A model generated the notes under the pieces. The model had not been told where the DNA came from. It ran no database searches and worked only from the letters and a program-made list of their open reading frames with translations. The position numbers and the translations under genes are program-made. A stretch of DNA of 64,000 nucleotides from Lytechinus pictus. Its lineage: Eukaryota. The stretch lies in the NCBI RefSeq assembly GCF_037042905.1, contig NC_087252.1:1-64000 (forward strand). Direction: 5' to 3'. Below, piece by piece: positions 1-62,355 of this stretch; position 1 is the stretch's first letter; every line of letters begins with the position of its first letter.

Positions 1-3000
1 AACCCTAACCCCTAACCCCTAACCCTAACCCTAACCCTAACCCTAACCCTAACCCTAACCCTAACCCAACCCTAACCCTAACCCTAACCCTAACCCTAAC
101 CCTAACCCTAACCCTAACCCTAACCCTAACCCTAACCCTAACCCTAACCCTAACCCTAACCCTAACCCTAACCCTAACCACCCTAACCCTAACCCTAACC
201 CTAACCCTAACCCTAACCCTAACCCTAACCCTAACCCTAACCCTAACCCTAACCCTAACCCTAACCCTAACCCTAACCCTAACCCTAACCCTAACCCTAA
301 CCCTAACCCTAACCCTAACCCTAACCCTAACCCTAACCCTAACCCTAACCCTAACCCTAACCCTAACCCTAACCCTAACCCTAACCCTAACCCTAACCCT
401 AACCCTAACCCTAACCCTAACCCTAACCCTAACCCTAACCCTAACCTAACCCTAACCCTAACCCTAACCCTAACCCTAACCCTAACCCTAACCCTAACCC
501 TAACCCTAACCCTAACCCTAACCCTAACCCTAACCCTAACCCTAACCCTAACCCTAACCCTAACCCCTAACCCTAACCCTAACCCTAACCCTAACCCTAA
601 CCCTAACCCTAACCCTAACCCTAACCCTAACCCTAACCCTAACCCTAACCCTAACCCTAACCCTAACCCTAACCCTAACCCTAACCCTAACCCTAACCCT
701 AACCCTAACCCTAACCCTAACCCTAACCCTAACCCTAACCCTAACCCTAACCCTAACCCTAACCCTAACCCTAACCCTAACCCTAACCCTAACCCTAACC
801 CTAACCCTAACCCTAACCCTAACCCTAACCCTAACCCTAACCCTAACCCTAACCCTAACCCTAACCCTAACCCTAACCCTAACCCTAACCCTAACCCTAA
901 CCCTAACCCTAACCCTAACCCTAACCCTAACCCTAACCCTAACCCTAACCCTAACCCTAACCCTAACCCTAACCCTAACCCTAACCCTAACCCTAACCCT
1001 AACCCTAACCCTAACCCTAACCCTAACCCTAACCCTAACCCTAACCCTAACCCTAACCCTAACCCTAACCCTAACCCTAACCCTAACCCTAACCCTAACC
1101 CTAACCCTAACCCTAACCCTAACCCTAACCCTAACCCTAACCCTAACCCTAACCCTAACCCTAACCCTAACCCTAACCCTAACCCTAACCCTAACCCTAA
1201 CCCTAACCCTAACCCTAACCCTAACCCTAACCCTAACCCTAACCCTAACCCTAACCCTAACCCTAACCCTAACCCTAACCCTAACCCTAACCCTAACCCT
1301 AACCCTAACCCTAACCCTAACCCTAACCCTAACCCTAACCCTAACCCTAACCCTAACCCTAACCCTAACCCTAACCCTAACCCTAACCCTAACCCTAACC
1401 CTAACCCTAACCCTAACCCTAACCCTAACCCTAACCCTAACCCTAACCCTAACCCTAACCCTAACCCTAACCCTAACCCTAACCCTAACCCTAACCCTAA
1501 CCCTAACCCTAACCCTAACCCTAACCCTAACCCTAACCCTAACCCTAACCCTAACCCTAACCCTAACCCTAACCCTAACCCTAACCCTAACCCTAACCCT
1601 AACCCTAACCCTAACCCTAACCCTAACCCTAACCCTAACCCTAACCCTAACCCTAACCCTAACCCTAACCCTAACCCTAACCCTAACCCTAACCCTAACC
1701 CTAACCCTAACCCTAACCCTAACCCTAACCCTAACCCTAACCCTAACCCTAACCCTAACCCTAACCCTAACCCTAACCCTAACCCTAACCCTAACCCTAA
1801 CCCTAACCCTAACCCTAACCCTAACCCTAACCCTAACCCTAACCCTAACCCTAACCCTAACCCTAACCCTAACCCTAACCCTAACCCTAACCCTAACCCT
1901 AACCCTAACCCTAACCCTAACCCTAACCCTAACCCTAACCCTAACCCTAACCCTAACCCTAACCCTAACCCTAACCCTAACCCTAACCCTAACCCTAACC
2001 CTAACCCTAACCCTAACCCTAACCCTAACCCTAACCCTAACCCTAACCCTAACCCTAACCCTAACCCTAACCCTAACCCTAACCCTAACCCTAACCCTAA
2101 CCCTAACCCTAACCCTAACCCTAACCCTAACCCTAACCCTAACCCTAACCCTAACCCTAACCCTAACCCTAACCCTAACCCTAACCCTAACCCTAACCCT
2201 AACCCTAACCCTAACCCTAACCCTAACCCTAACCCTAACCCTAACCCTAACCCTAACCCTAACCCTAACCCTAACCCTAACCCTAACCCTAACCCTAACC
2301 CTAACCCTAACCCTAACCCTAACCCTAACCCTAACCCTAACCCTAACCCTAACCCTAACCCTAACCCTAACCCTAACCCTAACCCTAACCCTAACCCTAA
2401 CCCTAACCCTAACCCTAACCCTAACCCTAACCCTAACCCTAACCCTAACCCTAACCCTAACCCTAACCCTAACCCTAACCCTAACCCTAACCCTAACCCT
2501 AACCCTAACCCTAACCCTAACCCTAACCCTAACCCTAACCCTAACCCTAACCCTAACCCTAACCCTAACCCTAACCCTAACCCTAACCCTAACCCTAACC
2601 CTAACCCTAACCCTAACCCTAACCCTAACCCTAACCCTAACCCTAACCCTAACCCTAACCCTAACCCTAACCCTAACCCTAACCCTAACCCTAACCCTAA
2701 CCCTAACCCTAACCCTAACCCTAACCCTAACCCTAACCCTAACCCTAACCCTAACCCTAACCCTAACCCTAACCCTAACCCTAACCCTAACCCTAACCCT
2801 AACCCTAACCCTAACCCTAACCCTAACCCTAACCCTAACCCTAACCCTAACCCTAACCCTAACCCTAACCCTAACCCTAACCCTAACCCTAACCCTAACC
2901 CTAACCCTAACCCTAACCCTAACCCTAACCCTAACCCTAACCCTAACCCTAACCCTAACCCTAACCCTAACCCTAACCCTAACCCTAACCCTAACCCTAA

Positions 3001-6000
3001 CCCTAACCCTAACCCTAACCCTAACCCTAACCCTAACCCTAACCCTAACCCTAACCCTAACCCTAACCCTAACCCTAACCCTAACCCTAACCCTAACCCT
3101 AACCCTAACCCTAACCCTAACCCTAACCCTAACCCTAACCCTAACCCTAACCCTAACCCTAACCCTAACCCTAACCCTAACCCTAACCCTAACCCTAACC
3201 CTAACCCTAACCCTAACCCTAACCCTAACCCTAACCCTAACCCTAACCCTAACCCTAACCCTAACCCTAACCCTAACCCTAACCCTAACCCTAACCCTAA
3301 CCCTAACCCTAACCCTAACCCTAACCCTAACCCTAACCCTAACCCTAACCCTAACCCTAACCCTAACCCTAACCCTAACCCTAACCCTAACCCTAACCCT
3401 AACCCTAACCCTAACCCTAACCCTAACCCTAACCCTAACCCTAACCCTAACCCTAACCCTAACCCTAACCCTAACCCTAACCCTAACCCTAACCCTAACC
3501 CTAACCCTAACCCTAACCCTAACCCTAACCCTAACCCTAACCCTAACCCTAACCCTAACCCTAACCCTAACCCTAACCCTAACCCTAACCCTAACCCTAA
3601 CCCTAACCCTAACCCTAACCCTAACCCTAACCCTAACCCTAACCCTAACCCTAACCCTAACCCTAACCCTAACCCTAACCCTAACCCTAACCCTAACCCT
3701 AACCCTAACCCTAACCCTAACCCTAACCCTAACCCTAACCCTAACCCTAACCCTAACCCTAACCCTAACCCTAACCCTAACCCTAACCCTAACCCTAACC
3801 CTAACCCTAACCCTAACCCTAACCCTAACCCTAACCCTAACCCTAACCCTAACCCTAACCCTAACCCTAACCCTAACCCTAACCCTAACCCTAACCCTAA
3901 CCCTAACCCTAACCCTAACCCTAACCCTAACCCTAACCCTAACCCTAACCCTAACCCTAACCCTAACCCTAACCCTAACCCTAACCCTAACCCTAACCCT
4001 AACCCTAACCCTAACCCTAACCCTAACCCTAACCCTAACCCTAACCCTAACCCTAACCCTAACCCTAACCCTAACCCTAACCCTAACCCTAACCCTAACC
4101 CTAACCCTAACCCTAACCCTAACCCTAACCCTAACCCTAACCCTAACCCTAACCCTAACCCTAACCCTAACCCTAACCCTAACCCTAACCCTAACCCTAA
4201 CCCTAACCCTAACCCTAACCCTAACCCTAACCCTAACCCTAACCCTAACCCTAACCCTAACCCTAACCCTAACCCTAACCCTAACCCTAACCCTAACCCT
4301 AACCCTAACCCTAACCCTAACCCTAACCCTAACCCTAACCCTAACCCTAACCCTAACCCTAACCCTAACCCTAACCCTAACCCTAACCCTAACCCTAACC
4401 CTAACCCTAACCCTAACCCTAACCCTAACCCTAACCCTAACCCTAACCCTAACCCTAACCCTAACCCTAACCCTAACCCTAACCCTAACCCTAACCCTAA
4501 CCCTAACCCTAACCCTAACCCTAACCCTAACCCTAACCCTAACCCTAACCCTAACCCTAACCCTAACCCTAACCCTAACCCTAACCCTAACCCTAACCCT
4601 AACCCTAACCCTAACCCTAACCCTAACCCTAACCCTAACCCTAACCCTAACCCTAACCCTAACCCTAACCCTAACCCTAACCCTAACCCTAACCCTAACC
4701 CTAACCCTAACCCTAACCCTAACCCTAACCCTAACCCTAACCCTAACCCTAACCCTAACCCTAACCCTAACCCTAACCCTAACCCTAACCCTAACCCTAA
4801 CCCTAACCCTAACCCTAACCCTAACCCTAACCCTAACCCTAACCCTAACCCTAACCCTAACCCTAACCCTAACCCTAACCCTAACCCTAACCCTAACCCT
4901 AACCCTAACCCTAACCCTAACCCTAACCCTAACCCTAACCCTAACCCTAACCCTAACCCTAACCCTAACCCTAACCCTAACCCTAACCCTAACCCTAACC
5001 CTAACCCTAACCCTAACCCTAACCCTAACCCTAACCCTAACCCTAACCCTAACCCTAACCCTAACCCTAACCCTAACCCTAACCCTAACCCTAACCCTAA
5101 CCCTAACCCTAACCCTAACCCTAACCCTAACCCTAACCCTAACCCTAACCCTAACCCTAACCCTAACCCTAACCCTAACCCTAACCCTAACCCTAACCCT
5201 AACCCTAACCCTAACCCTAACCCTAACCCTAACCCTAACCCTAACCCTAACCCTAACCCTAACCCTAACCCTAACCCTAACCCTAACCCTAACCCTAACC
5301 CTAACCCTAACCCTAACCCTAACCCTAACCCTAACCCTAACCCTAACCCTAACCCTAACCCTAACCCTAACCCTAACCCTAACCCTAACCCTAACCCTAA
5401 CCCTAACCCTAACCCTAACCCTAACCCTAACCCTAACCCTAACCCTAACCCTAACCCTAACCCTAACCCTAACCCTAACCCTAACCCTAACCCTAACCCT
5501 AACCCTAACCCTAACCCTAACCCTAACCCTAACCCTAACCCTAACCCTAACCCTAACCCTAACCCTAACCCTAACCCTAACCCTAACCCTAACCCTAACC
5601 CTAACCCTAACCCTAACCCTAACCCTAACCCTAACCCTAACCCTAACCCTAACCCTAACCCTAACCCTAACCCTAACCCTAACCCTAACCCTAACCCTAA
5701 CCCTAACCCTAACCCTAACCCTAACCCTAACCCTAACCCTAACCCTAACCCTAACCCTAACCCTAACCCTAACCCTAACCCTAACCCTAACCCTAACCCT
5801 AACCCTAACCCTAACCCTAACCCTAACCCTAACCCTAACCCTAACCCTAACCCTAACCCTAACCCTAACCCTAACCCTAACCCTAACCCTAACCCTAACC
5901 CTAACCCTAACCCTAACCCTAACCCTAACCCTAACCCTAACCCTAACCCTAACCCTAACCCTAACCCTAACCCTAACCCTAACCCTAACCCTAACCCTAA

Positions 6001-6416
6001 CCCTAACCCTAACCCTAACCCTAACCCTAACCCTAACCCTAACCCTAACCCTAACCCTAACCCTAACCCTAACCCTAACCCTAACCCTAACCCTAACCCT
6101 AACCCTAACCCTAACCCTAACCCTAACCCTAACCCTAACCCTAACCCCCTAACCCTAACCCCCTAACCCTAACCCCCTAACCCTAACCCCCTAACCCTAA
6201 CCCCCTAACCCTAACCCCCTAACCCTAACCCTAACCCTAACCCTAACCCTAACCCTAACCCTAACCCTAACCCTAACCCTAACCCTAACCCTAACCCTAA
6301 CCCTAACCCTAACCCTAACCCTAACCCTAACCCTAACCCTAACCCTAACCCTAACCCTAACCCTAACCCTAACCCTAACCCTAACCCTAACCCTAACCCT
6401 AACCCTAACCCTAACC

Positions 6417-6470
<54 letters not shown>

Positions 6471-6499
6471 CCCTAACCCTAACCCTAACCCTAACCCTA
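1..6499. repeat. Terminal telomeric array (CCCTAA)n / (TTAGGG)n
   Basis: ~6.5 kb of near-perfect CCCTAA starting at base 1, with the C-rich strand on + as expected for a left chromosome end. Confidence 0.99.
6145..6228. repeat. Telomere variant higher-order repeat (CCCCCTAA CCCTAA)x6
   Basis: CCCCCTAA starts at 6145, 6159, 6173, 6187, 6201 and 6215, giving an exact 14-bp period. Confidence 0.9.
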
Positions 6500-6543
6500 T
6501 GGTGGCGGGATCCGCCACTAGCGCAAAGTGCCCCTATACCTGA
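6500..6543. other. Non-telomeric hairpin cassette embedded in the telomere
   Basis: 6501-6541 GGTGGCGGGATCCGCCACTAGCGCAAAGTGCCCCTATACCT is identical to 12295-12335; contains stem GTGGCGG-GAT-CCGCCAC. Confidence 0.92.
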
Positions 6544-6694
6544 CCCTAACCCTAACCCTAACCCTAACCCTAACCCTAACCCTAACCCTAACCCTAACCC
6601 TAACCCTAACCCAACCCTAACCCTAACCCTAACCCTAACCCTACCCCTAACCCTAACCCTTACCCTAACCCTAACCCTAACCCTAACCCTAACC
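6544..6694. repeat. Short internal telomeric tract (~25 units) with variants
   Basis: CCCTAA repeats with CCCAA, CCCTAC and CCCTTA variants in the proximal half; runs directly into CCTAACCAACAAATAGGTTAG of the first array unit. Confidence 0.92.
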
Positions 6695-9600
6695 AACAAA
6701 TAGGTTAGATAATCTTAGCTAAGGAGAGAGTGGCAGAAAAAAAAGAGAAGAGGAGAGTGAGTGAGTGAGAGAGGGAGAAAGATAGAGAGAAACAACAAGT
6801 TAAATGTTAAGGATAAACGAGAGTAGGTATAATTCTTAAAAAGAATATCCATGTTGTTCTGGATGAAAAATAGTGAAAATCGTATTCAACTTCAGGGCTT
6901 CCCCGATTAAACCGTGATTTATTGGGGCTACCCCAATAAAAATGTCAGCCGCCTCTCTCTACACATCCGAGAGCAAATGGTGGTTGTATTACACATTCAA
7001 GAGAGAATTGTGGTAGGGGTGAAGTAGAATCTTCCACTTTCCTGGTGGTAGTATAACTCCGAAAATGAAAGGAATTTATCTTAATATCAGCATATTAATC
7101 TCATTCATATTAAAAGGGTGGCGGGATCCTTACTAGCAAAAATTTATCTATATACTAAAACCTTATCCTAGCAAACAAATAGGTTTATTTTCTTAAATGA
7201 CATTTGATTTTTTTGTTAAGGAAAGAGTGACCGAAAAAGACAGATAGAGAGAAAGAGAGAGAATGAAAAGTTAACGGTAAAGGATACACGGGAGTCGGTA
7301 TACTTTTTTAAAAGAATATATATAGTTCTGGATCCTAACCAACAAATAGGTTAGATAATTTTGGTTGAGAAGAGAGTGACAGAAAAAAGAGAGGAAGAGG
7401 AGAGTGAGTGAGAGAGGGAGACAGGAAGAGAGAAATAACAAATGAAAGGTAAAGGATACAACAGAGTGGGTACAATTTTAAAAAAGAATATCCGTATAGA
7501 TCTGGATGAATAACAGTAAAAATTTTATCCAACTCTAGGGCTTCCCCGATTAAAGCGTGATTTATTGGGGCTACCCCAATAAAAATGTCAGCCGCTTCTC
7601 TGTACACATCCAAGAGTCAAAAGTGTTGGCATTACACTCAAAATGAAAGGAATTTCTCATGATATTAGTATAAAAATCTCATCCATATTGAAAGGGTGGC
7701 GGGATCCTTTACTAGCAAAAAATATCTCTTTACTAAGGCCTAACCCTAGAAAACAAATACGTTTATTTTCTCAAATGACATTGGATAATTTGGTTAAGGA
7801 GAGAGTGACCGAAAAAGAGAGATAGACAGAAGAGAGAGAGAATGAAAAGTTAAAGGTAAAGGATAAACGAGAGTAGGTATAATTCTTGAAAGGAATATCC
7901 ATGTTGTTCTGGATGAATAACAGAGAAATTGGTATCCAACTTCAGGGCTTCCCCGATTAAACCGTGATTTATTGGGGCTACCCCAATAAAAATGACAGCC
8001 GCTTTTCTGTACACATTCAAGAGTCAGAAGTGGTAGTATTACACATTCAAGAGAGAATTGTGGTAGGAGGGGGGGGGGGTAGGAGGGAAGTAGAATCTTC
8101 CACTTCCCTGGTTGTAGTATTTCTCCAAAAATGAAAGGAATTTCTTTTAATATTAGTATAAAAATCTCATTCATAATGAAAGGGTGGTGGGATCCCTCAC
8201 TAGGAACAAAATATCTCTATACTAAAGCCTAACCCTAATAAAGTTTATTTTCTCAAATGACATTGGATAATTTGGTTAAGGAAAGAGTGACCAAAAAAGA
8301 GAAAGAGAGAGAATATTAAAAGTTAAAGGTAAAGGATTTTTTTCGGACTTCAGGGCTTCCCCGATTAAACCTTGATTTATTGGGGTTACCCCAATAAAAA
8401 TGTCAGCCGCTTCTCCGTACACATGCGAGAGTCAGAAGTGGTAGTACTACTCCGAAAATGAAAGAAATTTCGCTTAATGTCAGTATGCAAATTTCATTAT
8501 TATTGAAAGGGTGGCGGGATCTGTCACTGACAAAAAGTTTCTCAATACTTTAACCTGATCCTAACCAACAAAGAGGTTACATAATTTTGATTGAGGAGAG
8601 AGTGACAGAAAAAAGAGAGGGAGAGGAGAGTGAGTGAGAGAGGGAGAAAAGAAGAGAGACATAACAAACAAAAGGTAAAGGATACACGAGAGTGGGTATA
8701 ATTCATGAAAAGAATATCCGTATAGTTCCGGATGAATAACAGTGAAGTTTTATCCAACGTCAGGGCTGCCCCGATTAAACCTTGATTTATTGGGGTTACC
8801 CCAATTAAAACGTCAGACGCCTCTCTGTACACATCCGAGCCCCAATAGTGGTAATATTCCTCCCAAAATAAAAGGAATTTTTCTTAATAACATAATCAAC
8901 ATCTCATTCATATTTAAAGGGTGACAGGATTAATCACTAGCAAAAAAATCTCTGTACTAAAGCCCAATCCTAACAAACATAAGTTCATTTTCTCGAATGA
9001 CATTGGATGATTTGGTTAAGGAGAGAGTGACCGAAAAAGAGAGATAGAAAGAAAGAGAGAGTATGAAAAGTTAAAGGTAAATTATACACTGCAGTCGGTA
9101 TAATTTTTTAAAAGAATATCCATATAGTTCTGGATGGATAACAGTGAAATTTTTATCCGACAGTAAGCATGGTAGGGCTTCCCCGATTAAACTTTGATTT
9201 ATTGGGGGTACCCCAATAAAAATGTCAGCTGCTTTTCCGTACACGTACGATGGTCAGAAGTGGTAGTATTACACCGAAAATGTATGCAAGTTTAATTATT
9301 ATTGAAAGGGTGGCGGGATCCGTCACTGGCAAAAAATTTGTCTGTACTTAAATCTTATTCTAACCAACAAATAGGTTGGATAATTTTGGTTGAGGAGAGA
9401 GTGACAGAAAAAGTGAGGAAGAGGAGAGTGAGTGAGAGAGGAAGACATGAAGAGAGAAATAACAAACTAAAGGTAAAGGATACGCGAGAATTCTTGAAAA
9501 GAATATCCGTATAGTTCTGGATGAATAATAGTGAAATTTTTATCCAACTTTGAAGCTTCCCCGTTTAAACCGCGATATATTCATTGGGGCTACCCCAATA

Positions 9601-10760
9601 AAAATATCAGCCGCCTCTCTGTACACATCCCAGAGCAAATAGTGTTAGCATTACGGTATTACACATCCAAGAGACGATTGTGGTTAGTAGGGAAGTAGAA
9701 TCTTCCACTTCCCTGGTGGTAGTGTTCCTCCCAAAATGAAAGGAATTTCATAATATTAGTATAAAAAACCTCATTGATAATGAAAGGGTGGTGGGATCCC
9801 TCACTAGCAAAAAAAAATCTCTATACTAAAGCCTATACCTAATAAACAAATAAGTTTATTTCCTCAAATGACATTGAATAATTTGGTTAAAGAGAGAGTG
9901 ACCGAAAAGAGATATAGAGAGATAGAAAGAGAGGGGGAATTAAAAGTTAAAGGTAAAGTATACACGGGATTTGGTACATTTTTAAAAAGAATATCCATAC
10001 AGTTCTTGATGGATAACAGTGAAATTTTTATCCGAATTTAGGGCGTCCCTGAATAAACCTTGATTTATTGGGGCTACCCCAATAAAAATGTCAGCCGCTT
10101 TTCTGTACACATCCGAGAGCAAATGGTGGTTGTATTACACATTCAAGAGAGAATTGTTTTAGCAGGAAAGTGGAATCCTTGGAAGTATTACTCCGAAAAT
10201 GAAGGAAATTTCTCGAAATATTAGAATACAAATCTTTTTCATATTCAAAGGGTGGCGGGAACCGTCAGTAGCAAAATATATTTCTTTATGACAGACCAAC
10301 AATAACCATCACATACCATTATTTCTTCATTAAAAAAAAATATATTTCTTCAAATATTTAGCAGAATTTCGATTAAGAAGAGAGGACAAGAAAATAGAGA
10401 TAAAGAGAGAAGGGGAGGGAAAGGGGAAGGGGAAGGGAGAATACAAAAGGACAAAAATAAATAAACTCAATCAGTGTATGCATTCGAGAGTAGGGTATTG
10501 TAGTTTATACCCAACAGTTTTAGACAAGAATATCCAAATAATTCCCAATGAATATCCGTGAAATTTCTATCCAGCTTCAGGGATTTCCCGATTAAACCTT
10601 GATTTATTGGGGCTACCCCAATAAAAACGTCAGTCGCCTTTCTGTACACAACCGAGAGACAACAGTGATAGTATTCTCCGAATGTGAAAGCAATTTCTCT
10701 TAATATCAGTATAAAAATATATTCATATTCAAAGGGTGGCGGGATCCGTCACTAGCAAAA
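6695..10760. repeat. Subtelomeric tandem array of about nine diverged ~410-bp units (A/B subtypes)
   Basis: TTTATTGGGGnTACCCCAATAAA recurs at ~6918, 7561, 7968, 8376, 8786, 9198, 9583, 10064 and 10603; GGGTGGCGGGATCC..CACTAG-like motif at ~7116, 7694, 8182, 8509, 8919, 9308, 9786, 10250 and 10734. Confidence 0.92.
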
Positions 10761-12332
10761 AGTTTGAAAAGCTTTAAAATGTCATAACTTTGTTATTCCA
10801 TGTCCGTTTCTGAAGAAATTTCCAATGTTTTGTATGACTCAGGGTACCGTCTCCCTGAATATTCCTTTTACATTTGCAGATTGAAGGGTTTGCCTGTTTG
10901 AACTTTCGGAACAACTCAGGATTACATGTCACTGATCAATACTGAAAGAAATAAAGCTCATAAGTATATGAATTGAAATTATAGTATGGAAACTTTAATG
11001 ATTTTACAGCATATATAAGGTAACAATCGAGGGTGTGTACACAACGACTACATGATGGGAAGCTATATACAAGGTTTGACTAAAAAAAAAAGGGTTATAA
11101 GTATGGTTAACAACTCATTTTTATTGTATTTATACAAGTCTAGATCAACCATGAAGATACATTACAGAAGTAAATCACCTGATGGTCTTGGTCCTTACAG
11201 GATTCTCGGATACAGCAAACTCCGATTTCTCAAATGAACAAATACAAAATCACAGCCATAATGACAAACAGCATCTTAAGGCAGTCCAATGTTGTCTCCA
11301 TGCCTCGAACGCAATGGAAGAAATGAGCAATTCATAAGTTGAGCTAACGCTGGAGTGGGCAAGAACGTGGACTTATACGGTAGCGAAAAAGAAAGTATTA
11401 TGACCTGATTATAGTATGATCATTGACAGGAGCTCCTAATGGCTCCACGATTTGATCCATGTGACAAGGAGCATCAACTGCTTGGTAACAAAATAATTAC
11501 AACAGTTTTAGGTTTTAAAGTGTTTATTTGACCATTCATAGCTATTTTGTAATTTCATAGCAGGGAGGGGCACTTTTGGCCACCCCTCCCCTAAGATCTC
11601 GGTCGAGGATCGCGCAATCGCGCCGAAAATTCGCACGCACGTTATTCGTGTCGTAATCTCTCAATAATGCCAAAATATTTGAAATTAATTTTTGATTGAC
11701 TATGCTAATTAATTCATATGATCATACTTTGGCTGCAAATCAATAATATTGCTCTTGAAACTTTAAATATTGGTCTGGACACTCATTTTAGGATTCTTAC
11801 TATATGTATACTAAAAACAGGAAATAGCTAGTGTTCTATATACTTAAATGTTATTTTTTTAAATACTTTTTTGTTTATTAGGTTTGTATTTTATTTTAAG
11901 GAAATCTTTTGGAACACTATTGGGGGACACAAATTATTTACAAGTGAAAGAAAAAGACTTAAAAAATATTTTTTTAATGAAAATATGTATTACTGTACAA
12001 GGCCTATAGTAGCGCCAATGCCTCTATACCCAAACAATAACCATAACCCTGACTGTATGGACTTTCCCCATTAGTATAACACGCATGTGTACAAAGTCTA
12101 TGGGAGTTTCGGACTTATGATATATTTTCCCTTTTTTATGTACAAACCCTATGTAATTTTTTTTCCCCCAACTATAGTTTTTTTACATGTTTTGACCATT
12201 TTATAGCTATAAATTTTTTTTTTTTTTAATACTTTGACATTTTTTCGAATTTCCCCATAGGTATAACACGTGTGTACAAAGTCTATGGAAAATGGGTGGC
12301 GGGATCCGCCACTAGCGCAAAGTGCCCCTATA

Positions 12333-12561
12333 CCTAACCCTAACCCTAACCCTAACCCTAACCCTAACCCTAACCCTAACCCTAACCCTAACCCTAACCC
12401 TAACCCTAACCCTAACCCTAACCCTAACCCTAACCCTAACCCTAACCCTAACCCTAACCCTAACCCTAACCCTAACCCTAACCCTAACCCTAACCCTAAC
12501 CCTAACCCTAACCCTAACCCTAACCCTAACCCTAACCCTAACCCTAACCCTAACCCTAACC

Positions 12562-12633
<72 letters not shown>

Positions 12634-12669
12634 CCCTAACCCCTAACCCCTAACCCTAACCCAACCCTA

Positions 12670-12708
<39 letters not shown>

Positions 12709-12717
12709 ACCCTAACC
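12333..12717. repeat. Interstitial telomeric tract, same orientation as the terminal telomere
   Basis: ~385 bp of CCCTAA, pure distally, with CCCTAAA, CCCCTAA and CCCAA variants proximally. Confidence 0.97.
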
Positions 12718-13256
12718 TTCATAATGAAATGTGAAAATGTATTCGTGAACAACATTATTTGCATACAACTTTACTTTAGATTTTAATTGCCCAAAGTAAT
12801 ATCAATTTCAAAATCTGAATTAAAGGTTTTGGCAAAATAAAAAACATCATCATGGTCCTGCATGGGTAGCGGGACCTTGGGGACGCAGCTGCGTGTATTA
12901 TTCTCCATAGGCAGCTGCACCCCCAGTTATTTTGGAAGATGTGTACAAATGTAAAACGTAAACAAAACGACTTTCATTTTGTAGGGAAACCCCACTTTTT
13001 TTTCTTTTTTTTTGCTCTTCAAATTTCTCTGAACCAATTTCATCTCCATTTTGTAGTGAAAAACTTTTTTTTCTTCCTTTTAAACTTTCTCGGGATCAAT
13101 TTGATCTGCTTTTTTAAAAGTGAACACCATGTTCTTTTTTTTTTTTTTTTTTGCTTTTCAAATTTACTTCAGTACCCCCACGCAAAAAATCGTTCACAGG
13201 CCCCATAATTTCAAAGTATAAAAATAAGCCATTTTCGCGGAATCACGTGTTGTCAC

Positions 13257-14722
13257 CAGTGGCGTAGCTAGGATTTTTTTCCCGGGGGGGCACTGGGGGG
13301 TCCTTGCTTTTTTCAAGGGGGGCACCGGCCATTTTTCCGGTGTGTGTGTATGTGTCACAAGGGCGGATCCGACATTCGCCAATAGGGGACGGGTCCCGAA
13401 TTTATCTTCACCTATATCAGTCACTTCTTAGTTTTATTATATAAAACAACATAAACATGAAATAATCTCATAAGCCTTATAAAAAGTGCGAGCGCGAAGC
13501 GCGAGCGATTTTTTTTTTTTTTACTTTCATGTATTTTTCCTGAAAATTTAATTTTCTGGGCAATGTTATGTGTGATCCTGAACAAGATTCGTATGTAACT
13601 AGATGGTTACTGCGAACGCCAAGCGCGAACAGAAATTGTTATCAACTGTTCTAGCATTATCGAAAAGGGACCTGTTAAGGACTGCTTACAGTTACCCACG
13701 AAGACGGTATATATTTCAATAATGCGAGCGCGAAGCGCGAGCAAATTTTTTAACATTCCGACCTAAAAAATGGTAATTCTAAGCACTTTTTGTATTAATA
13801 AATGGGATAGGTATGGCACTAAACAATTGATGCGAGCGCGAAGCGCGAGGAAGAAAATTGAGATTTTAGACCTAAAAGCGGGACACTCAATTCATATTTT
13901 GTAAATCATAAATAGGATATAGTCAATTGGGTATCATTAATAATGCGATCGTGAAGCGTGAGCAGACAATTATTGATATTCTGATGTGAAACTGGATAAT
14001 TTAAGTCCATTTTGAATAAAGGTCATTTTGCCTCCGACGAAGATTCTGCTAGGATCGAAAGCTTAGGCCCCTTTTTGACTTTCTAATTTTGAATAAAGAA
14101 CATGCAGGCTATCGCGCATGTTTTAGATTTAGACCTAGAATCTGGGCATTCTGAATACATTTGTTTAATGGAACATTATGGAATACACTTAGACAATATG
14201 AACTTGGCAAATCAAACAATGTGACCATGCAGCGTGAGCTTAAAATGCTGATATGTAGACCGTAAAACGGACATTTTACAGAGCACTTAAATTGTAAATG
14301 AAAAAAATAATGAAAGCTCGATGTCCGAGCTAAAATATGTTTTGCATATTGACTTCAAAACTTGCTCCATATCAGCCTATTGAGCAAGATATGAATCTCA
14401 TCAAACAGGCAATTCTGGCGCGAAGCGCCAGCAAAAATTTTATATAGTAACATGAAAAGATTTGTTTTTTAATTGCAAGTCTTCCCCTCCCATTATTTCA
14501 TTTACTCGTCTTCCTCCTCTTATTTTCCTCTTCTTTTTTTCTTCTGTCTTTCTTCTTCTTTTCCTTTTTTTCTTTTCTTCTTTTCCTTTTTTCTTTTCTT
14601 CTTTCTCCCTTTTTTCTTTTTTTTTTGCTCTGCCAATTTTTTCTGGGGGGGCACCTGGGGGGGCACACCAAATCTCAGGGGGGGCACGTGCCCCCCCAGG
14701 CCCCCCCGTAGCTACGCCACTG
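13257..14722. mobile_element. Non-autonomous hAT-like DNA transposon
   Basis: TIR CAGTGGCGTAGCTA...TAGCTACGCCACTG; perfect 8-bp TSD GTTGTCAC (13249-13256 and 14723-14730); no transposase ORF. Confidence 0.88.
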
Positions 14723-15857: not shown

Positions 15858-17562
15858 CCCTAAACAGGCCTGGGGGGGGGGGTTGAATCACCCCCCTCGA
15901 CATTTTCTGCGATCATTCCACCGCGCGAAGTTTTTTTACTGCGCCACTCGCAGAGTTTATACTTTTAAGTCTCACGCATCTTTTGAGACCAAATTTACGA
16001 TGCCCAGGTACGCGGTTCCAAAATTATGCAACATTTCGTAAGTGCATGTCTGACCTAAAATAGTTCCAAAACGTGATTTGTGTACTAAGTCAATGTAAAT
16101 TGAGTTTTCTCATCTTATTCATAAAGATATGATTATTTTTACTTGAAACAGCTGAAATCAATTGATTTTAGCATAATTATGCTTCAATAAGGTTGTGCAA
16201 TAAATCTGGTGAAAACAAAGAACAAGTGGAATGCCTCTGGCCGTCTCACCTGCATCACGCGATTCAATATAGCAGCAGTGCTGATTTTGAAAACTACTAT
16301 AACTCGCACAAGATGTTCAGTGATACTTGGTTACTCTTATTTCCACGTTTTATGAACTAGACCAATACACTTAAAGAGATATGATGGCAATTCAACAAAT
16401 ACCCCCAACGTGGCCAAAGTTCTTTGACCTTACATGACCTTTGACCTTGATCATGTGACCTGAAACTCGCACAGGATGTTCAGTGATACTTGATTACTAT
16501 TATGTCCAAGTTTTATGAACTAGACCAACACACTTTCAAATTTATGGCTGTAATTCAACAAATACCCCAATTTGGCCAAAGTTCATTGACCCTAAATGAC
16601 CTTTGACCTTGATCATGTGACCTGAAACTTGCACAGGATGTTCAGTAATACTTGATTACTATTATGTCCAAGTTTCATGAATCAGATCCATAAACTTTCA
16701 AAGTTATGATGGTAATTCAACAGATACCCCCAATTCGGCCAAAGTTCATTGACCCTAAATGACCTTTGACCTAGGTCATGTGACGTGAAACTCATGCAGG
16801 ATGTTCAGTGATACTTGATTAACCTTATGTATAAGTTTCATGAACTAGGTCCATATATTTTCTATGATGACATTTCAAAAACTTAACCTTAGGTTAAGAT
16901 TTTGATGTTGATTCCCCCAACATGGTCTAAGTTCATTGACCCTAAATGACCTTTGACCTTGGTCATGTGACATGAAACTCAGGCAGGATGTTCAGTAATA
17001 CTTGATTAACCTTATGGCCAAGTTTCATGAACTAGGTCCATATACTTTCTAAGTTATGCTGTCATTTCAAAAACTTAACCTCAGGTTAAGATTTGGTGTT
17101 GACGCCGCCGCCGCCGTCGGAAAAGCGGCGCCTATAGTCTCACTCTGCTATGCAGGTGAGACAAAAACAAAAGGTTGAAAAACAAAGAAATACATAAGAA
17201 ATTCATAAAACAATAAAATACATAAGAAATTGATTTCCAAACCGAAGTTTTTTCAATTGCGATTGTTAAGAATGCTACAAAGGATATTTTTACCAAAAAT
17301 TATCATTCTAGGAGCTTTATTGAATTAGAGCAAAAAGTATGATTTATGCATAAATTAGCATAATTCATATAAAATAAAATCTCATTATCTTGGAAAATTT
17401 TACCATACAGCCTTGTAGATTACATCGCACACTACCAGCGTGCAAATTTTTGCGGAGCTCATGCGATCGGCGGCCGAGATCTCGGGGGGGGGGGGGGGGG
17501 GGTTGGTTGAATCAACCCTCCCCCTGCCACAGAACAGCCAAAAAAGCCCAGCCTAGTTAGGG
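15858..17562. mobile_element. piggyBac-like MITE hosting a nested element
   Basis: TTAA|CCCTAAACAGGC ... GCCTAGTTAGGG|TTAA; related copies at 45275-45944, 46360-47030 and a fragment near 11590-11940. Confidence 0.75.
16221..17166 (+). mobile_element. Helentron-associated non-autonomous element (HINE, pearl/Tsp-like) with ~163-bp internal tandem repeats
   Basis: Subterminal IR GTCTCACCTGCAT (16243) / ATGCAGGTGAGAC (17150); 3' hairpin; (GCC)n before the end; about five core repeats (GATGTTCAG at 16312, 16475, 16637, 16800, 16987); A-rich flanks. Confidence 0.7.
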
Positions 17563-32996: not shown

Positions 32997-34850
32997 TAGA
33001 TAGATAGATAGATAAATTCTATTTTCACACGGTAAAAAACCCAAACAGATTAGATACATAGTCTGATTTGCATTGGGGCCGTGCCATGAATAAAATGTAC
33101 AAAGTAAAACTAAAAGGCACCCAATCTAGTATACATGAATAATACATAAAACATAATAATCGTAATTATTACCAGGTGATAATACAAAGACGGTAAATTT
33201 ATACAAATAATTACGAATTGTAATCAAATGACAAATTGGTAATATACAGAATACCTTCAATATGAATGCATAATACAGAAAATATAACATTATTATAGGG
33301 TGAAATATTACTCGGATACATAATTATAAATGGATTAATTTGAATTATTGATAAAAAAAACTATGTCTAACAACACTGCACACTCACCCTTACACACAAA
33401 CAGATACACACCCTTTCATACACCTGTCATCATTAGGTCTCATCCCTTTGATTTAACGCATACAGGTATAACAGGGAAAAAAAGACATACCCTCCCCCAC
33501 CAACCTATCCCTTTGTGATTCATTTCCTTGAATTAGCTTATGCCCTTTTGAAACTGGTAGTGGTATTAGATTGTTGCATTTGGATTGGTAGTGAGTTCCA
33601 GCATTGAGCCCTCCTGAACTTAAAAGTTTTCTTACCAGATTCGGTTTTTGCTTGGGGGATATTTAAAGTTAGTGGACCTGACCGTGTATTATATGTATGC
33701 CTATAAAATGAAAATCTTTCAATTAAATATGTCGGTGCCTGTCCTGTCATTATTTTAAACATAATTATAGCAATGTTGTCTCTTCTGTTTTCTTGTAGCG
33801 TTACCCATTTTAATTTATTTAAATTCTCTTTGGAAGATGAATACCATGGAGATCAATTTATTATTTGGGCAGCCCTATTTTGTAGCTTTTGAAGAATTTT
33901 CTGATTAATCAACCCGCAGGTACCCCATACAGCATCGCAATAGTTAAAATGTGACATTATCAGGGAATTATAAACAATGATCAGATCCTTTTCGTCGACG
34001 AAGTTCTTTATAGACTTTAACATGAATAAACCACCATTTACTTTCTTCTGAACATAATCAATATGGTTTTGCCATGTTAAATTAGAATCAAGGATAACAC
34101 CTAAATATTTGCATTCATCTACCTTACACAATGGAGCATTATCAATATGTATCTGAAACATAGCATTTTTAATTTTACAGAGCCTTTGTTTGGTACCTAG
34201 TACAATGTACTCGGTTTTATCGATGTTTAAATGTAGTTTATTTTTAATCAGCCATTTTCTTATGTTTTCTAGATCTTCATTAATCTTAAAACATATTTCA
34301 GTGGGGCTTTTGCCTGAGCAATAAATCATCGTATCATCTGCATACAAGCTAACTTTACAATGTTTCAAAATGGACGGTAGATCATTAACAAATATGATAA
34401 AAAGTAGGGGTCCCAATATTGACCCCTGGGGAATACCACCCAGGATAAGGCGAGTTTGAGATATATGGCCACTGACTCTTGTAACCTGCCCTCTTCCTTT
34501 TAAATAATTCGTGAACCAGTTTATTGACACTCCATCCAGACCATACTGACATAGTTTATCGATTAACAATTCGTGACTTACAGTATCAAACGCTTTGCGC
34601 AGATCAAGCATTACAGCACATACAACATTCCCGTTATCAAATTCATTAAACCAATCATCGGTGATTGAAAGCAGTGTTGTCATGGTTGAATGAAGGGGCC
34701 TAAAGCCTGATTGGGAAGCATTCAAGAGATGATGAGAATTAAAGTAATTGTACAATTGGTTAAAAACTATTCTTTTTAAGATTTTTGATAAGATCGGTAA
34801 AATAGAAATGGGTCTAAAATTATTAAGTTCATTAGAGCCTCCTTTGTACC
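32997..34850 (-). mobile_element. 5'-truncated L2/CR1-group LINE (reverse transcriptase to 3' tail)
   Basis: Motifs NFRPISILP, LDLRKAFDTV, GIPQGSILGPLLF and YADDT; in-frame continuation after one TGA at 33853-33855 (LKWVTLQENRR...WNSLP); (TCTA)n tail. Confidence 0.92.
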
Positions 34851-35574
34851 AATTGGTCCAGCAGTGAACACATCCATATCCAGAATACAGTGTAAAGATG
34901 ATGATTACAAAATACAGTACAATATATTTCAATGCATAAAGAAAACATACACTACACAAGTCAATACTTCTACTTCTAGTATTTCTACGACAATACTCAG
35001 CAGGATCCATAAGTCAGGATGTAGTGCTAAGGAAATATCTTGGGTGCTCATCTGCAGTGCATACTTGTTGGTGCCTTTAAAACATTGTGCTGTTTGTGCA
35101 AGTAAAAATCTAGTAAATCAATACTACAATACCAACCAAAATGTGAACAATACTTAAATCAGACAAGAAGAGAAACAGTATAATGTAGATGTGGGGATCA
35201 TTTAAAAAGTTAAAAACTTTTAACATAATCCCAATTTTGTCAATAAAAGTTTGAGTTTTGCAGAGAAAGACTAGAAAAAAAAATGTAATTGAGGTACATG
35301 TATTAACTTAATCTAGGATTCTAGGAAATTAGAGTTTTTTTGTAGAAGAAATGTTTTAAGTTTATATTTGAATACATTAAGGGATAGTGAACTTTTTTAA
35401 TCTTCACTCCTTCAGGGAGGCTGTTCCAGAATACAGGACCATTATGAATTATTGACTTTGGGATAAGGATAATTTCCCACATGAAACACAGTAATCAGAT
35501 TTTCTTCTAGTATCATAATTGTGAATATTAGAATTTTACAAAATAAAGAATAAAAATTTATTGGAAGTAATTTC

Positions 35575-36030: not shown

Positions 36031-37757
36031 TATATATTATAGGATTTTCTTGGAAAAAAGCTCAGGACATGCAGGAGGTCATTTTCAGATTGAAAAAAAA
36101 TGGTACCCCCTGTCTGCGCACCCATTCACTTTGCACACGATTCAGGGATTTTGATGAGAAATGCTGCATTTTGAGGCCATCACATGAAATGCCCAAAATT
36201 CATTATTTTCCCACCATTCTGAGTCAGATTTTTTAAATGAATATCTGTCTATGTATTGCATGTGTAAAGTCTGTGTTCTTTGCGTATCTTCTTTTACTAG
36301 AATCGCACAGGTACGCGTGTGCGCAGACAACCAGGACTGTGCAGACTTTGGGGAACTTGCCAATTTGCCATACATGCTGAATGAAACTGAACTTCTGTTC
36401 TGAAGTGAAAATGAAATTCAAGCGTGTCTGAGTGTGGAAATCGGACAACAATAATCAGATTGAGCTGAGCTGTGGCTGTGCTGTGTCGAGTGTGTTGGTG
36501 GCTATGCACAGTCAAGTGTGCAGTTGTTTTCATTCAGTTTAAACTTTGATTAGGCCTAGTCTAGTATATAAGGAATTCATTATTGCCTGAAAAATACCTG
36601 AGGCCTGGCTGTGTCTTGGATCAAAATCCATGCTTGGTTTATTAGAATTTAGCTTATTTTATTTTTGCTAATTTTTCTGCAATTATGCAATTTTTTTTAA
36701 AAGAAAAGTAAAAAAGTTAAGAATCTTAACTTAATGATAAATTAGATACCAGTTGTAAAAATCATATAATGTGTGCTTACTCTCCACGGAGCCAGGGATT
36801 GTGTCCCATTCATGTGCGTGTACCGCAAAAAAAAACTTTCGCCCCCAAGATTTCTACTTCTAAAAGATCCATCCCTAAATCATGTAAATGGGATACAACT
36901 TCATTTCCGACATTTCTACGATATTGATTTCATTTTTAAACAAGAATTCATTAAAAAAAACAAGAAAAATATTATGAAAAGACGGGGAAAACTTGCGCGA
37001 TGTTTACGTCGCCATCTTGTTTCTTTTTGTTCTCCCCCAATGTTACCCCAGGGGAAATTTCAACCAAGTTTATGCTTTTGAAATTTGAAATGTCATCATA
37101 ACTTAAAATAAATGGATCTAGTCATGACACTTTTAGGGTAATGAAGTGACCCTGATCAATTTAGGTAGCTGTAGGGGCACGTCCAGCCCATGCCCTCCCT
37201 TTTGAGAGGCGCAAAAAATATTTTCTATTATGCAAAGTCATATGCAAGGGTTTCTTTTTTTTTTTGGCTCATCAAATTTTTCCTGTGCAAAAATGGCATG
37301 CCCCTCCCCATTTTGATAATCCTGGATCTGTCCCTGCATAAGTTTCAGGTCACGATCAAGATAGGACATTTCAGGTCATCAAACTTTATAGTATGTTATT
37401 ATCAAATGAATTTTCAGGAGTGAAAAATTGTTCTTTGCTTAGTAGTTTTCTAAGTCGGCAACTCGGCTCTACCACGTCCTGTATTGAATCACATAATACA
37501 GTTGAGACTGTGAGAGATGTTGAAATTTAGAGTCACTTTTCCAAAAGATACATTACAACCCAAAGAGTGTACAATCACATAGGGCACAAAATACTCGACA
37601 CCACTGAGAGGCACATTGAGGTACATGAACGCAGCATCCAAGGCCATCATATGGGATTCATTTAATCCTTAGGTGTCAGTTCAGTGTGATTAAGAGATAA
37701 CCATTTTCTTTTTGTTTCTTTCATTGATTCAGGATGAAGTAAAGACCTAAGTCAATC

Positions 37758-38658
37758 ATGGCTGGTACTAGATATTTGGCTTCACCTGTCCTTCTGAGAC
37801 AGATTCTGTTCTGTGGAGAGCTGCAGAGACATCTCCTCTTTCCATTGAAGTCAAGACACCAACAAACTATTTCATCAAGTCACATCCATCATTCTACAAT
37901 GGGAAGACTATGCTCTGGTCGCACTTCTACAGAGATGATAGGAAACCTGTTCCTGTCAAGGAAGAGGATGGTGTGTTCCCCTGATGTAGGGGCGAGTTAT
38001 CCATTTCCATTAAATCTTCAAACTTCTGTATTTTGCAACGTTTGGAATACAAAGTGTGAACTCCATGATGCAGCCCCTTTTTCTTCAGATATCATTAGCC
38101 CCAGTCCAAGTAGCACTGATGTCAAGTCCAAAGTAATTACTTTCATAGAAAGTGAAGATGATTTGGATACCTTCATGAGCCAAGTCACATCAGAATTGAA
38201 TTTATCAGAACCTTCAACATCTGTGCAGATTCTCAGACCACTTGTTCAAAAGCTTGTTAGTATGGATTGTGATTGCAGAGGCATATCTGCAATGCTAGTA
38301 GCTAATCCCAGGATACTCTCTGTGCAGATGGGTAGACTTCTTGGCAACATTGATTATCTTCATATGCTTGGATTGAACTATAGGCAGTTGTTGAAGACCC
38401 TTGATGGAAACGCAAGATTGTGGAAGGCATCGCTTCAGAATCTTCAGAGTAGAGTCAAGCAGCTCAGGAAGTTTGGGTTTGTGGAAGGGCAACTGCAAAG
38501 GTTGATTGCCGATTGGCCACATGTACTGACCATGGGTAGTGTCCAGTTGAATACTGTGGTCAAGTTACTGATGGAGAAGTGCAGATTCCCCAGGGCGGAA
38601 GTCTTGACCATATTATCAGACAGTCCAGCAATCTTGAAAGAAGACCTAGAGAGTATTG
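37758..38658 (+). CDS. MTERF4: Mitochondrial transcription termination factor family member 4, first coding exon
   Basis: Acceptor at 37732; presequence-like N-terminus; mTERF-type repeats (NPRILS, WPHVLT, SPAILK); donor G|GTAAG, phase 1. Confidence 0.85.
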
Positions 38659-38678
38659 GTAAGATTTGTAGAGTCAAT

Positions 38679-38972
38679 GGCCCGTATTCTGAAGTCGGGT
38701 TTAACTTAGACCATGGTCTAACTCTGTGCTAAAATTATGGGAAGCCAAAAGTTTCAAAATTTTGTTTACAGTGAATGCTTCTCATGTTTATTGTGCTCTT
38801 TACTATTTTATTAATGGTTAAGACAACTGTCAATATCCTACCCAGGCATTTAATGTTTTGGGAGTCAAATGAGCTGATACATTGAACCTCTACTGTTATA
38901 GATTTATGTAACAACTGGCTTTCCATAGTTAAACCAGAGTTTAAATTAAACCCGACTGCAGAATACAGGCCC
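38679..38972. mobile_element. MITE (Harbinger-like termini) in the MTERF4 intron
   Basis: GGCCCGTATTCTGAAGTCGGGTTTAA ... TTAAACCCGACTGCAGAATACAGGCC; inverted related copy near 47290-47578. Confidence 0.65.
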
Positions 38973-56964: not shown

Positions 56965-57245
56965 GGGGGCAATGTGGTCTAGTGGTTAAGACTCTTGTCT
57001 TTCAATCTGAGGGACATGGGTTCAATTCCCAGTCATGGCGTGTTTTCCTTCAGCAAGAAATTTACCCACATTGTGCTGCACTCAACCCAGGTGAGGTTAT
57101 TGGCTTCAGGCAGGAAGTAATTCCTCAAAAAGCTTTGAGCACCTGAATCTGTAGACAAGCTTAGCCAGGGTAATATAGGAGGGCCTTGAGCACCTTACAT
57201 GGTGGATACGTGTGCTATACAAAGCCTATATTGATATCATTATGA
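56965..57245 (+). mobile_element. tRNA-derived SINE
   Basis: A-box TGGTCTAGTGG and B-box GGTTCAATTCC; body shared with fragments at ~40318-40475 (+) and ~56285-56468 (-). Confidence 0.8.
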
Positions 57246-61972: not shown

Positions 61973-62355
61973 TCATCACCACCACCACCATCATCTTCAT
62001 CCACCATCATCATCACCATCACCATCATCGTAGTCATCTTCCTCCTCCTCCTCCACCTCATAAAGCTCTTTATAAGTTACAAGCGACTTTACAATGACTG
62101 GTGACCCTTTTATACAAACAAATTTTCATTGGTGTTGATTTAGATCATATATACTTATTTTTCATGTTCATAAAGTCACATGTAACTTACAAACAGCTTT
62201 ATTATTATTATGGTAAATTTGCCATGCAATGGTAATTACCATGGTTCGCTGATCACCAACCAATCAAAATCAAGGATTCCGTGCAAGTTATCATTGGATG
62301 GCAAAGTTACCATAATGGTAACTTTTATGCAATTTTTAGGGCCTTGGTCTCTTAC

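Follow-up and report, generated by a model that had tools for sequence, protein, structure and literature searches.

The subject of this analysis is a subtelomeric repeat system at the left-hand terminus of the 42.4-Mb contig C8 of the Lytechinus pictus genome assembly (811.7 Mb in 368 contigs). The window consists of bases 1-64000 of that contig; its left side is the chromosome end and its + strand is the C-rich telomere strand. The system is built from several modules--a ~410-bp satellite unit, a long non-coding element (represented here by modules A and B) and, on other chromosome ends, a ~28-kb version with an open reading frame (ORF) of 968 amino acids (aa)--all of which have one proximal terminus: a two-hairpin cassette, termed here K, that abuts C-strand telomere repeats. 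This is a real, well-structured chromosome-end system; modular subtelomeric repeats joined via telomere tracts are a known kind of structure, of which it is a variant. The construction of animal subtelomeres is poorly known outside of mammals and insects, and the present locus consists of a stack of attachment junctions, each with a conserved hairpin cassette distal to a telomere tract.

Anatomy of the chromosome end

Reading inward along the + strand, on which all of the following features lie, the terminal telomere, (CCCTAA)n, occupies positions 1..6500 (TRF, 1-6694, period 6, 98% matches) and is interrupted at 6501..6540 by a patch consisting of the intact cassette's final 40 nt, that is, of the GGTGGCGGGATCCGCCAC hairpin and a tail ending in CCCCTATACC, with telomere repeats on either side. 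From this patch ~25 telomere repeats (6541..6695) lead to the first satellite unit, with whose start, CC followed by AACAAATAGGTTAG, they are in phase; as an earlier, first-pass annotation of this DNA had claimed, and as can be read directly in the sequence, full repeats pass straight into that unit (CCTAACC joined to AACAAATAGGTTAG). The junction at 6695, including a CCCTTA variant, recurs on contig C31. Ten satellite units follow (6696..10765), nine of which close with a decayed cassette, and then, directly after the last satellite cassette, come module A (10766..11170), module B (11171..12249), which is the non-coding 3' part of a longer element, and K90 (12250..12334), the intact cassette module with its two hairpins. 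K90 abuts an interstitial telomere tract (ITS) of ~63 repeats (12335..12717; TRF, 12333-12717) that is oriented like the terminal telomere. This tract is the boundary between a shared distal block and chromosome-specific DNA, which extends from 12718 inward. Within 6500-12717 no ORF of at least 120 aa belongs to any family: the only frames of that length are those running through telomere repeats and a 140-aa minus-strand frame (7794-8216), in agreement with the first-pass statement that the module encodes neither a helicase nor a reverse transcriptase (RT).

The satellite array and its decayed cassettes

A cassette pattern, GGGTGGCGGGATCC, was run over the 64-kb window with at most 3 mismatches allowed and with 100 shuffles as a control. 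It gave 11 matches, all on the + strand, compared to a shuffle mean of 2.18 and maximum of 6 (0/100 shuffles reached 11). Ten of these matches are cassette copies that had been proposed at the outset (6500, 7116, 7694, 8182, 8509, 9308, 9786, 10250, 10734 and 12294). The remaining match, at 12864 (3 mismatches), lies outside of the array and is probably due to chance, and a decayed cassette at 8919 (GGGTGACAGGATTA) that the pattern missed was recovered within a repeat family, D9, of 9 copies spaced 327-578 bp apart. With the former dropped and the latter added there are 11 real copies in a single orientation, as originally claimed; those starting at 7116 through 10734, including the one at 8919, are the decayed cassettes within the array.

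Telomere-like 'seeds' after these cassettes had also been proposed. A scan of 6720-10765 for 12-mers matching C-strand telomere repeats at 10/12 or more positions found four clusters, each 42-45 nt past a cassette start (7738-7749, 8227-8238, 8554-8566 and 8963-8974, for example), against a mean of 0.43 and a maximum of 3 among 200 dinucleotide shuffles, so that the seeds are more telomere-like than shuffled controls; the other units have weaker, more decayed remnants, and no G-strand telomere-like 12-mer occurs within the scanned interval. The unit start, CC followed by AACAAATAGG, is seen both after the ~25 repeats (at 6695) and after a single seed repeat inside the array.

The units do not, as first described, share one length of ~410 bp: when full they span 334-489 bp, one is cut to 154 bp, and they fall into two subtypes, alpha and beta, that mostly alternate. 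Because units are only 78-90% identical to each other (that is, 10-22% diverged) and form two alternating subtypes, the array is far older than the block transfer described below, and is satellite-like. Likewise, the junction between array and module A is shared by C8, C10, C41, C102 and C31, and is therefore old. Uniform inter-unit seeds of 1-2 repeats, together with alternating subtypes, fit a history in which a unit already bearing a seed would have been amplified.

Distribution and polarity within the genome

The whole assembly was searched for a 29-mer from within the intact cassette, again with at most 3 mismatches; the reversed pattern, used as a control, found nothing. There are 16 sites (9 forward, 7 reverse), at every one of which CCCTAA-type repeats directly follow the cassette. 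Fifteen of the 16 lie no more than 88 kb from a contig end (14 within 41 kb) and their polarity is uniform: + at left ends (C5, C7, C8, C31 and C41) and - at right ends (C4, C10 and C102). The internal exception, at C5:36.37 Mb, is a 36-nt cassette remnant with ~60 nt of decayed repeats. An 85-88% copy, with ~250 nt of decayed repeats, occurs on C21, 579 kb from its end, and C20 ends inside module B beside 172 TTAGGG repeats, where the cassette is rearranged. AT-rich variant repeats (GTTAAAG-like), which are either real or read-end noise, occur beside this rearranged cassette (C20:19757250-19757360) and at the start of C31 (C31:1242-1300).

A search with the satellite unit gave 161 matches, 150 of which were listed. 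The matches listed are on nine contigs (C4, C5, C7, C8, C9, C10, C31, C41 and C102), nearly all at contig ends, and their orientation tracks the contig end; the off-end exceptions among them are on C9 (563 kb from its end) and on C31, a contig of 757 kb with stretches of matches at 32-237 kb, which also has the one opposite-strand match listed. When the 42 ends of the 21 largest contigs (C1-C21) were sampled, telomere repeats were found at 15, and the satellite family at 5 of these 15 (C5-L, C7-L, C8-L, C4-R and C10-R); the family occurs, in addition, on three small contigs. Restriction to chromosome ends and fixed polarity, which the first-pass annotation had put forward for checking, are thus what is observed: the units are neither an ordinary dispersed or internal repeat nor confined to the end at which they were first noticed.

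Transfer of blocks between chromosome ends

The segment C8:7216-12587 is 99.3% identical to C5 over 5.4 kb, and C8:8408-12717 is 99.1% identical to C31 over 4.3 kb. Both alignments run out within the ITS or where it ends, and the DNA proximal to it is unlike: in the fetched segments outside of C8, nothing matches the C8 flank (12718-13800) over its full length, and only an 82-bp piece of it recurs, on C10 and C102. The array, modules A and B and K have therefore moved en bloc as DNA between three chromosome ends (C8, C5 and C31). Two insertions on C5 and C31 relative to C8 were considered as possible new units, and were rejected as DNA transposons with terminal inverted repeats: a 7.9-kb, TTAA-flanked element at C5:5712-13637, and a 4.6-kb element with inverted repeats of ~35 nt at C31:4468-9074, each within an otherwise 99%-identical copy of the array.

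On C7, C41, C10, C102 and C31, module B extends upstream as a longer non-coding element, which is at least 2.55 kb on C7 and longer still on C41, C10 and C31. (The middle of B bears a 67-76% resemblance to dispersed repeats.) In C8, C5 and C31, module A stands in place of the 5' part of B. On C41, C10 and C102 the order is: array, module A, ~12 kb lying outside of the examined segments, an ORF on the opposite strand, the long element, K and ITS. Because B is longer on other ends, and because an ORF lies there between A and the long element, the C8 form has the appearance of a compact version, derived by deletion, of a composite block of ~28 kb.

The ORF, which is on the strand opposite to the cassette, is intact in three copies of 968 codons without stops (C41:27400-30303 (-), C10:37148662-37151565 (+) and C102:63808-66711 (+)), and degenerate copies occur on C9 (26.55 Mb) and C31 (62-68 kb). 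Its product is 99% identical to an uncharacterized protein, LOC135155775 [Lytechinus pictus], and has homologues of similar length at 28-51% identity, two of which are named as fish proteins and one of which occurs on 88 contigs. It has no Pfam match and no PDB fold match at E ≤ 0.001; an AF2 model has a mean pLDDT of 55; and a protein atlas gave only sub-threshold LRR leads (0.76).

Cassette copies within telomere tracts

Besides the intact and decayed cassettes at module boundaries, short cassette 'patches' lie within telomere tracts. The 40-nt patch on C8 is ~150 bp distal to the array, and is absent from the sister blocks on C5 and C31. The telomere of C4 has a 63-nt patch; that of C10 has two ~90-nt copies, 4.5 repeats apart; and C41 has a ~90-nt copy of K90 in a tract that is now interstitial. 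These patches match their own chromosome end: that on C4 shares with the proximal copy on C4 a unique variant ending in ATTGAGAATG, and both patches on C10 are identical to the proximal copies there. At C10:37144093, furthermore, the long element has lost internal sequence, and what is left is its 5' part plus precisely K90.

Interstitial tracts, of 63 to ~105 repeats, are stacked and each is preceded by K, which requires that attachment has occurred repeatedly. The telomere-capped distal ends of the arrays differ--with a full unit at the end on C8, C5 and C31, a mid-unit end on C7, and an end 18 nt before the cassette on C10 and C4--and these differing cut points fit erosion followed by healing. 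Other irregularities of the telomere tracts are a non-cassette, 73-nt patch on C31 (~2143-2216), ~530 bp distal to the array, and, on C8 (~6140-6230), a single block of five CCCCCTAACCCTAA variant repeats, which may be real variants or read-end noise.

Structure and conservation of the cassette

The first hairpin of K90 is CCATAG...CTATGG and the second is GTGGCGG-GAT-CCGCCAC (12296-12312), followed by the tail TAGCGCAAAGTGCCCCTATACC; 22 nt separate the K hairpin from the telomere repeats, and the junction between cassette and telomere is constant (CCCCTATACC followed directly by TAACCC). The 29-mer is identical at 14/16 genomic sites. When C8 is aligned with C10, the last 55 columns are all identical (55/55), with B ranging from 46 to 93% per 60-column window. 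As RNA, K90 is predicted to fold no more stably than shuffled sequences (z = -1.27), and the cassette region of the satellite has z = +1.27. Among 32 cassette variants from the fetched segments there are no compensatory pairs; the changes are either G:U-compatible or pair-breaking.

A diverged cassette family, K', is present on C26 as five copies, all on the + strand (433014, 813302, 1076193, 1306558 and 1358043) and all followed by decayed telomere repeats. In these the hairpin is retained through a double change from C:G to G:C, the sole compensatory change found, which points to a binding or processing function that the hairpin may have. About 250 nt upstream of K' on C26 lies another module, whose end consists of the K tail and a seed; downstream is a long array of a ~62-bp minisatellite, which also forms the end of this satellite-rich contig.

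A search of Rfam at the gathering score over the whole window found only a tRNA, at 56969, and at E ≤ 10 over 6400-12800 gave only three weak mir-302 matches and no hammerhead. The vertebrate telomerase RNA (TR) model RF00024 matches neither this genome nor any of 14 control genomes.

Reverse transcriptase and transcripts

Longer, RT-encoding copies ending in the same cassette had been suggested as something to look for, and there are none among the cassette sites of the assembly. On C41 the long element has no ORF of 90 aa or more except for a 92-aa frame. A single RT ORF, on C4, is adjacent to a cassette; as a candidate autonomous partner it was rejected, inasmuch as it belongs to a ~6.9-kb long interspersed element (LINE) inserted into B in the cassette's orientation (C4:32968025-32974902), which has a target duplication of AAAC and ends in an (AAATCT)n tail.

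A look-up of RNA data sets for 11171-12340 gave none. Three rRNA-depleted runs of the same species label (~6% of each was read) and one contig set were compared with 9300-12345. Within this interval the satellite, B and K attracted no reads at all, a blank that at such shallow sampling has no evidential weight. Reads and high-depth contigs matched only at 10772-10806 and, because they continue into unlike sequence, reflect a dispersed short repeat; this ~30-nt repeat, at the start of module A, has 86-88% matches on many contigs.

A model for attachment, and its rivals

The first-pass annotation proposed that one cassette-terminated module, which would be non-autonomous, was added repeatedly onto telomere repeats. 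Cassette-first attachment holds, given the fixed polarity, the constant presence of telomere repeats at the cassette and the 5'-shortened copies within telomere tracts. Unit-by-unit retrotransposition, on the other hand, is weakened, because the units are old, because the block moved whole at 99% identity, and because patches match their own end. The reading favoured here, which is given about an even chance of being correct, is that of a composite system, similar to the Y' elements of yeast or the Sultan repeats of a green alga, in which invasion of an ITS, DNA copying that begins with the cassette and healing by telomerase would together build the subtelomere. In this model, the 3' end of a telomeric G strand would invade an ITS on the same chromatid, on the sister chromatid or on another chromosome end; synthesis primed on the ITS would then copy the adjoining DNA, cassette first, towards the chromosome end. 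Short tracts, if aborted, would yield the 40-90-nt cassette patches within telomeres, which telomerase would extend; long tracts, made by break-induced replication (BIR), would place copies of entire blocks on other telomeres. Such rounds, repeated in cis and combined with unequal exchange, could generate a tandem array, each unit of which would retain its cassette and a seed of 1-2 repeats, and erosion into the array would be healed by telomerase, often at a seed.

The cassette is always on the distal side of an ITS, which is the side copied first by a G-strand 3' end priming on that tract. This priming geometry explains the fixed polarity, the constant junction and the stacking, and does so for a DNA or an RNA template alike. 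A DNA template is favoured because blocks have moved as wholes, patches agree with the local copy, the array is satellite-like, there is no RT partner, and the same reasoning has been put forward for the Sultan repeats of Chlamydomonas and for yeast Y' (PMC8287924). Several observations weigh against this reading. The internal inserts of cassette and decayed telomere (C5:36.37 Mb and C21) require rearrangement or fragment capture. The match of patches to their own end consists of one diagnostic site (on C4) plus one haplotype group (C10, C41 and C102). Patches of 40, 63 and ~90 nt imply at least three stops within 90 nt, which suit low-processivity reverse transcription equally well or better. 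The deletion copy at C10:37144093 keeps its 5' part and K90, as non-autonomous mobile elements often do. The compensated hairpin of K' suggests some function that would be superfluous in a passive passenger. And no strand-invasion intermediate was seen.

Several of these points are accommodated by a non-autonomous telomere-attaching retroelement, an alternative that is possible but rated on the unlikely side. Module-cassette-ITS transcripts ending in (CCCUAA)n would anneal to G-overhangs, be reverse transcribed (by telomerase or by some other cellular or retroelement RT) and be capped by telomerase; copies would be 5'-truncated, and the hairpins would be the RT recognition signal. The 3' end with its reverse-complement telomere repeats, the restriction to ends and the fixed polarity all suit such an element, as do the several 5' truncation points within telomere tracts (40, 63 and ~90 nt), the peak of conservation at the 3' end (55/55 between C8 and C10, against 46-93% in B), the hairpin-preserving change in K', the internal-deletion derivative that retains K90 and the short cassette + ITS inserts at two internal sites (C5:36.37 Mb and C21). 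Moreover, the satellite unit and the long element have different bodies but a homologous 3' cassette, like the tails of paired LINEs and short interspersed elements (SINEs), and endonuclease-lacking (EN-minus) Penelope-like elements (PLEs) attach likewise (PMC8557442). Yet no cassette-ended, RT-encoding copy exists in the assembly; there is no poly(A), and no hammerhead or other Rfam family at E ≤ 10 apart from the weak mir-302 matches; recent spread has involved a multi-kb block that holds 10 old units; patches match the local copy; and the seeds are uniformly 1-2 repeats long, within alternating subtypes. About as tentatively, K itself might be the 3' recognition module of a non-autonomous RNA element that lacks both RT and hammerhead, whose K-(CCCUAA)n transcripts on G-overhangs would be copied in trans, by telomerase itself or by a cellular or retroelement RT, in an Athena-like manner; in a telomerase-positive deuterostome, the satellite, the long element and the K + ITS inserts at internal sites would then all go back to such an element. 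A different use of the same geometry, regarded as very improbable, would make the cassette the 5' leader of the species' own TR, copied whenever telomerase overruns its template boundary. On the C strand the cassette does lie 5' of the repeats, as a TR leader would; in purple sea urchin TR, residue 41 is just 5' of the template and the stem-loop P1.1 adjoins it (PMC4712671), and the C8 patch is 40 nt long; and TERC fragments beside rodent ITSs are documented (PMC2246262). A TR origin is nevertheless unlikely because homology extends more than 1-2.5 kb upstream of the cassette in long copies, unlike a transcript leader, and because no TR-like locus carries K (0 of 16 or 18 sites combine a cassette, one template copy and non-telomeric RNA); in addition, patch lengths vary (40, 63 and 90 nt), and the K hairpin, with 22 nt between it and the repeats, is not adjacent to a template.

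The two remaining explanations are both held to be improbable. If the ~28-kb block with its 968-aa ORF were a selfish DNA element that recombines into telomeres through its own terminal repeats, much as telomere-integrating herpesviruses do, then the cassette would be its end signal and the window would contain a deleted derivative. The common order on C41, C10 and C102 (~12 kb of it outside of the examined segments), an ORF that is intact in three copies and has a patchy, multi-copy pattern of homologues, and the deletion-like joining of A directly to B on C8 are all in keeping with this. Nothing ties the ORF to integration, however, since it has no Pfam family, fold match or atlas lead; the C10 end may be represented on C41 and C102 as haplotigs, which would leave perhaps only one intact locus; no second terminus with telomere repeats in the required orientation was identified; and the degenerate copies of the ORF, on C9 and C31, resemble products of ordinary decay. 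Alternatively, an ordinary subtelomeric satellite without any attachment might have amplified a junction that arose once, with the patches being artefacts of long-read assembly or consensus. The units are indeed old and satellite-like, odd, low-quality-looking variant repeats do occur at contig starts and ends (the C31 start and C20), and the patches are known from the assembly alone; but they are found at three ends, in three lengths, with clean junctions and end-specific variants, the K90 patch on C41 lies in a tract that is now interstitial, and the stacked K-preceded tracts (63 to ~105 repeats) need repeated attachment.

Under the favoured Y'- or Sultan-like reading and its RNA-templated rivals alike, the junction stack and the short patches in live telomeres record extension of 3' ends on non-telomerase templates in a telomerase-positive animal. 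[quoted passage not shown] If the template is RNA, it would represent a new class of RT-less telomere-attaching element and a possible link between telomerase and retroelements in deuterostomes.

Comparison with known systems

The likeness to Y' arrays or Athena chains that was first suggested is borne out in part: the array, its seeds and its block spread correspond to Sultan and Y', and the 3' repeats and terminus restriction to Athena, whereas a helicase, an RT and a hammerhead are all missing. As in Sultan or Y' systems, a tandem array adjoins the telomere and (apart from the C9 and C31 stretches, and judging from the matches listed) is not found in chromosome interiors; the border of the unit has a seed that continues, in phase, as telomere; and blocks of DNA bounded by interstitial telomere repeats have spread. 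In Chlamydomonas reinhardtii the Sultan element likewise has a telomere-like border seed that is in phase with, and passes seamlessly into, the telomere, along with some truncated distal units and occasional transfer between ends; in the part of that study considered here, its authors invoke unequal sister exchange or BIR together with seed-primed healing, and also mention Y' amplification by BIR (PMC8287924). There, however, copies within an end are more than 99.5% alike, compared to 78-90% here, and the same part of the article describes no conserved hairpin cassette beside the seed, no stacked long interstitial tracts and no short telomere patches. The Sultan host, moreover, is a green alga and the present one an animal of echinoderm type.

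The Y' element of Saccharomyces cerevisiae is a modular element present at a subset of chromosome ends, joined by an ITS to proximal DNA, sometimes in tandem with short telomere tracts between copies, and with an ORF in its long form; it spreads by recombination or BIR, an RNA/cDNA route having also been reported, and Ty1 reportedly mobilizes subtelomeric Y' elements. The present system resembles it in being a modular, ITS-joined end element that can occur in tandem, that has an ORF in its long form and whose spread would be by recombination or BIR. It differs in that the Y' ORF is a helicase, whereas the 968-aa ORF has no recognisable family (neither a Pfam nor a fold match) and is on the strand opposite to the cassette; in that Y' has no known hairpin cassette at its proximal edge; and in that here a ~410-bp satellite is part of the element.

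Retroelements of the TRAS/SART and HeT-A/TART type have gag/pol ORFs and a poly(A) or otherwise defined tail, and TRAS/SART elements insert, by means of a specific endonuclease, at a fixed position within the repeat. No such ORFs are found here, and the cassette joins the repeats without an A-run. Athena and Coprina elements and their Terminons are closer: they are restricted to termini, are arranged head to tail with the 3' end inward, have short reverse-complement telomere repeats at the 3' end beside a structured RNA motif, and include 5'-truncated, telomere-capped copies (PMC8557442). Correspondingly, 15/16 intact cassettes here are near termini with the 3' end inward, and all 16 are followed by reverse-complement telomere repeats. 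But those elements have their own PLE reverse transcriptase and a hammerhead ribozyme (PMC8557442), and here neither a PLE-type RT without the GIY-YIG endonuclease nor a hammerhead beside the telomere repeats was found with the cassette; recent spread here, in addition, has been en bloc as DNA. Finally, rodent TERC-ITS loci (PMC2246262) resemble the C5:36.37 Mb and C21 sites in that a non-telomeric fragment plus telomere repeats is inserted internally; the fragment there is a telomerase RNA homologue, whereas the present cassette continues into kilobases of subtelomeric DNA.

Other features of the window

The chromosome-specific part of the window contains, deep within it, two ORF fragments of the RVT_1 reverse-transcriptase family (33853-35013 and 61395-62006, both on the - strand) and an ORF with an mTERF domain (37743-38732, + strand). 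Tandem repeats at 16301-17102 (163/187 bp) and 57380-58317 (157 bp, 6 copies) are unrelated to the cassette system, as is a weak tRNA match of 30.7 bits at 56969-57039.

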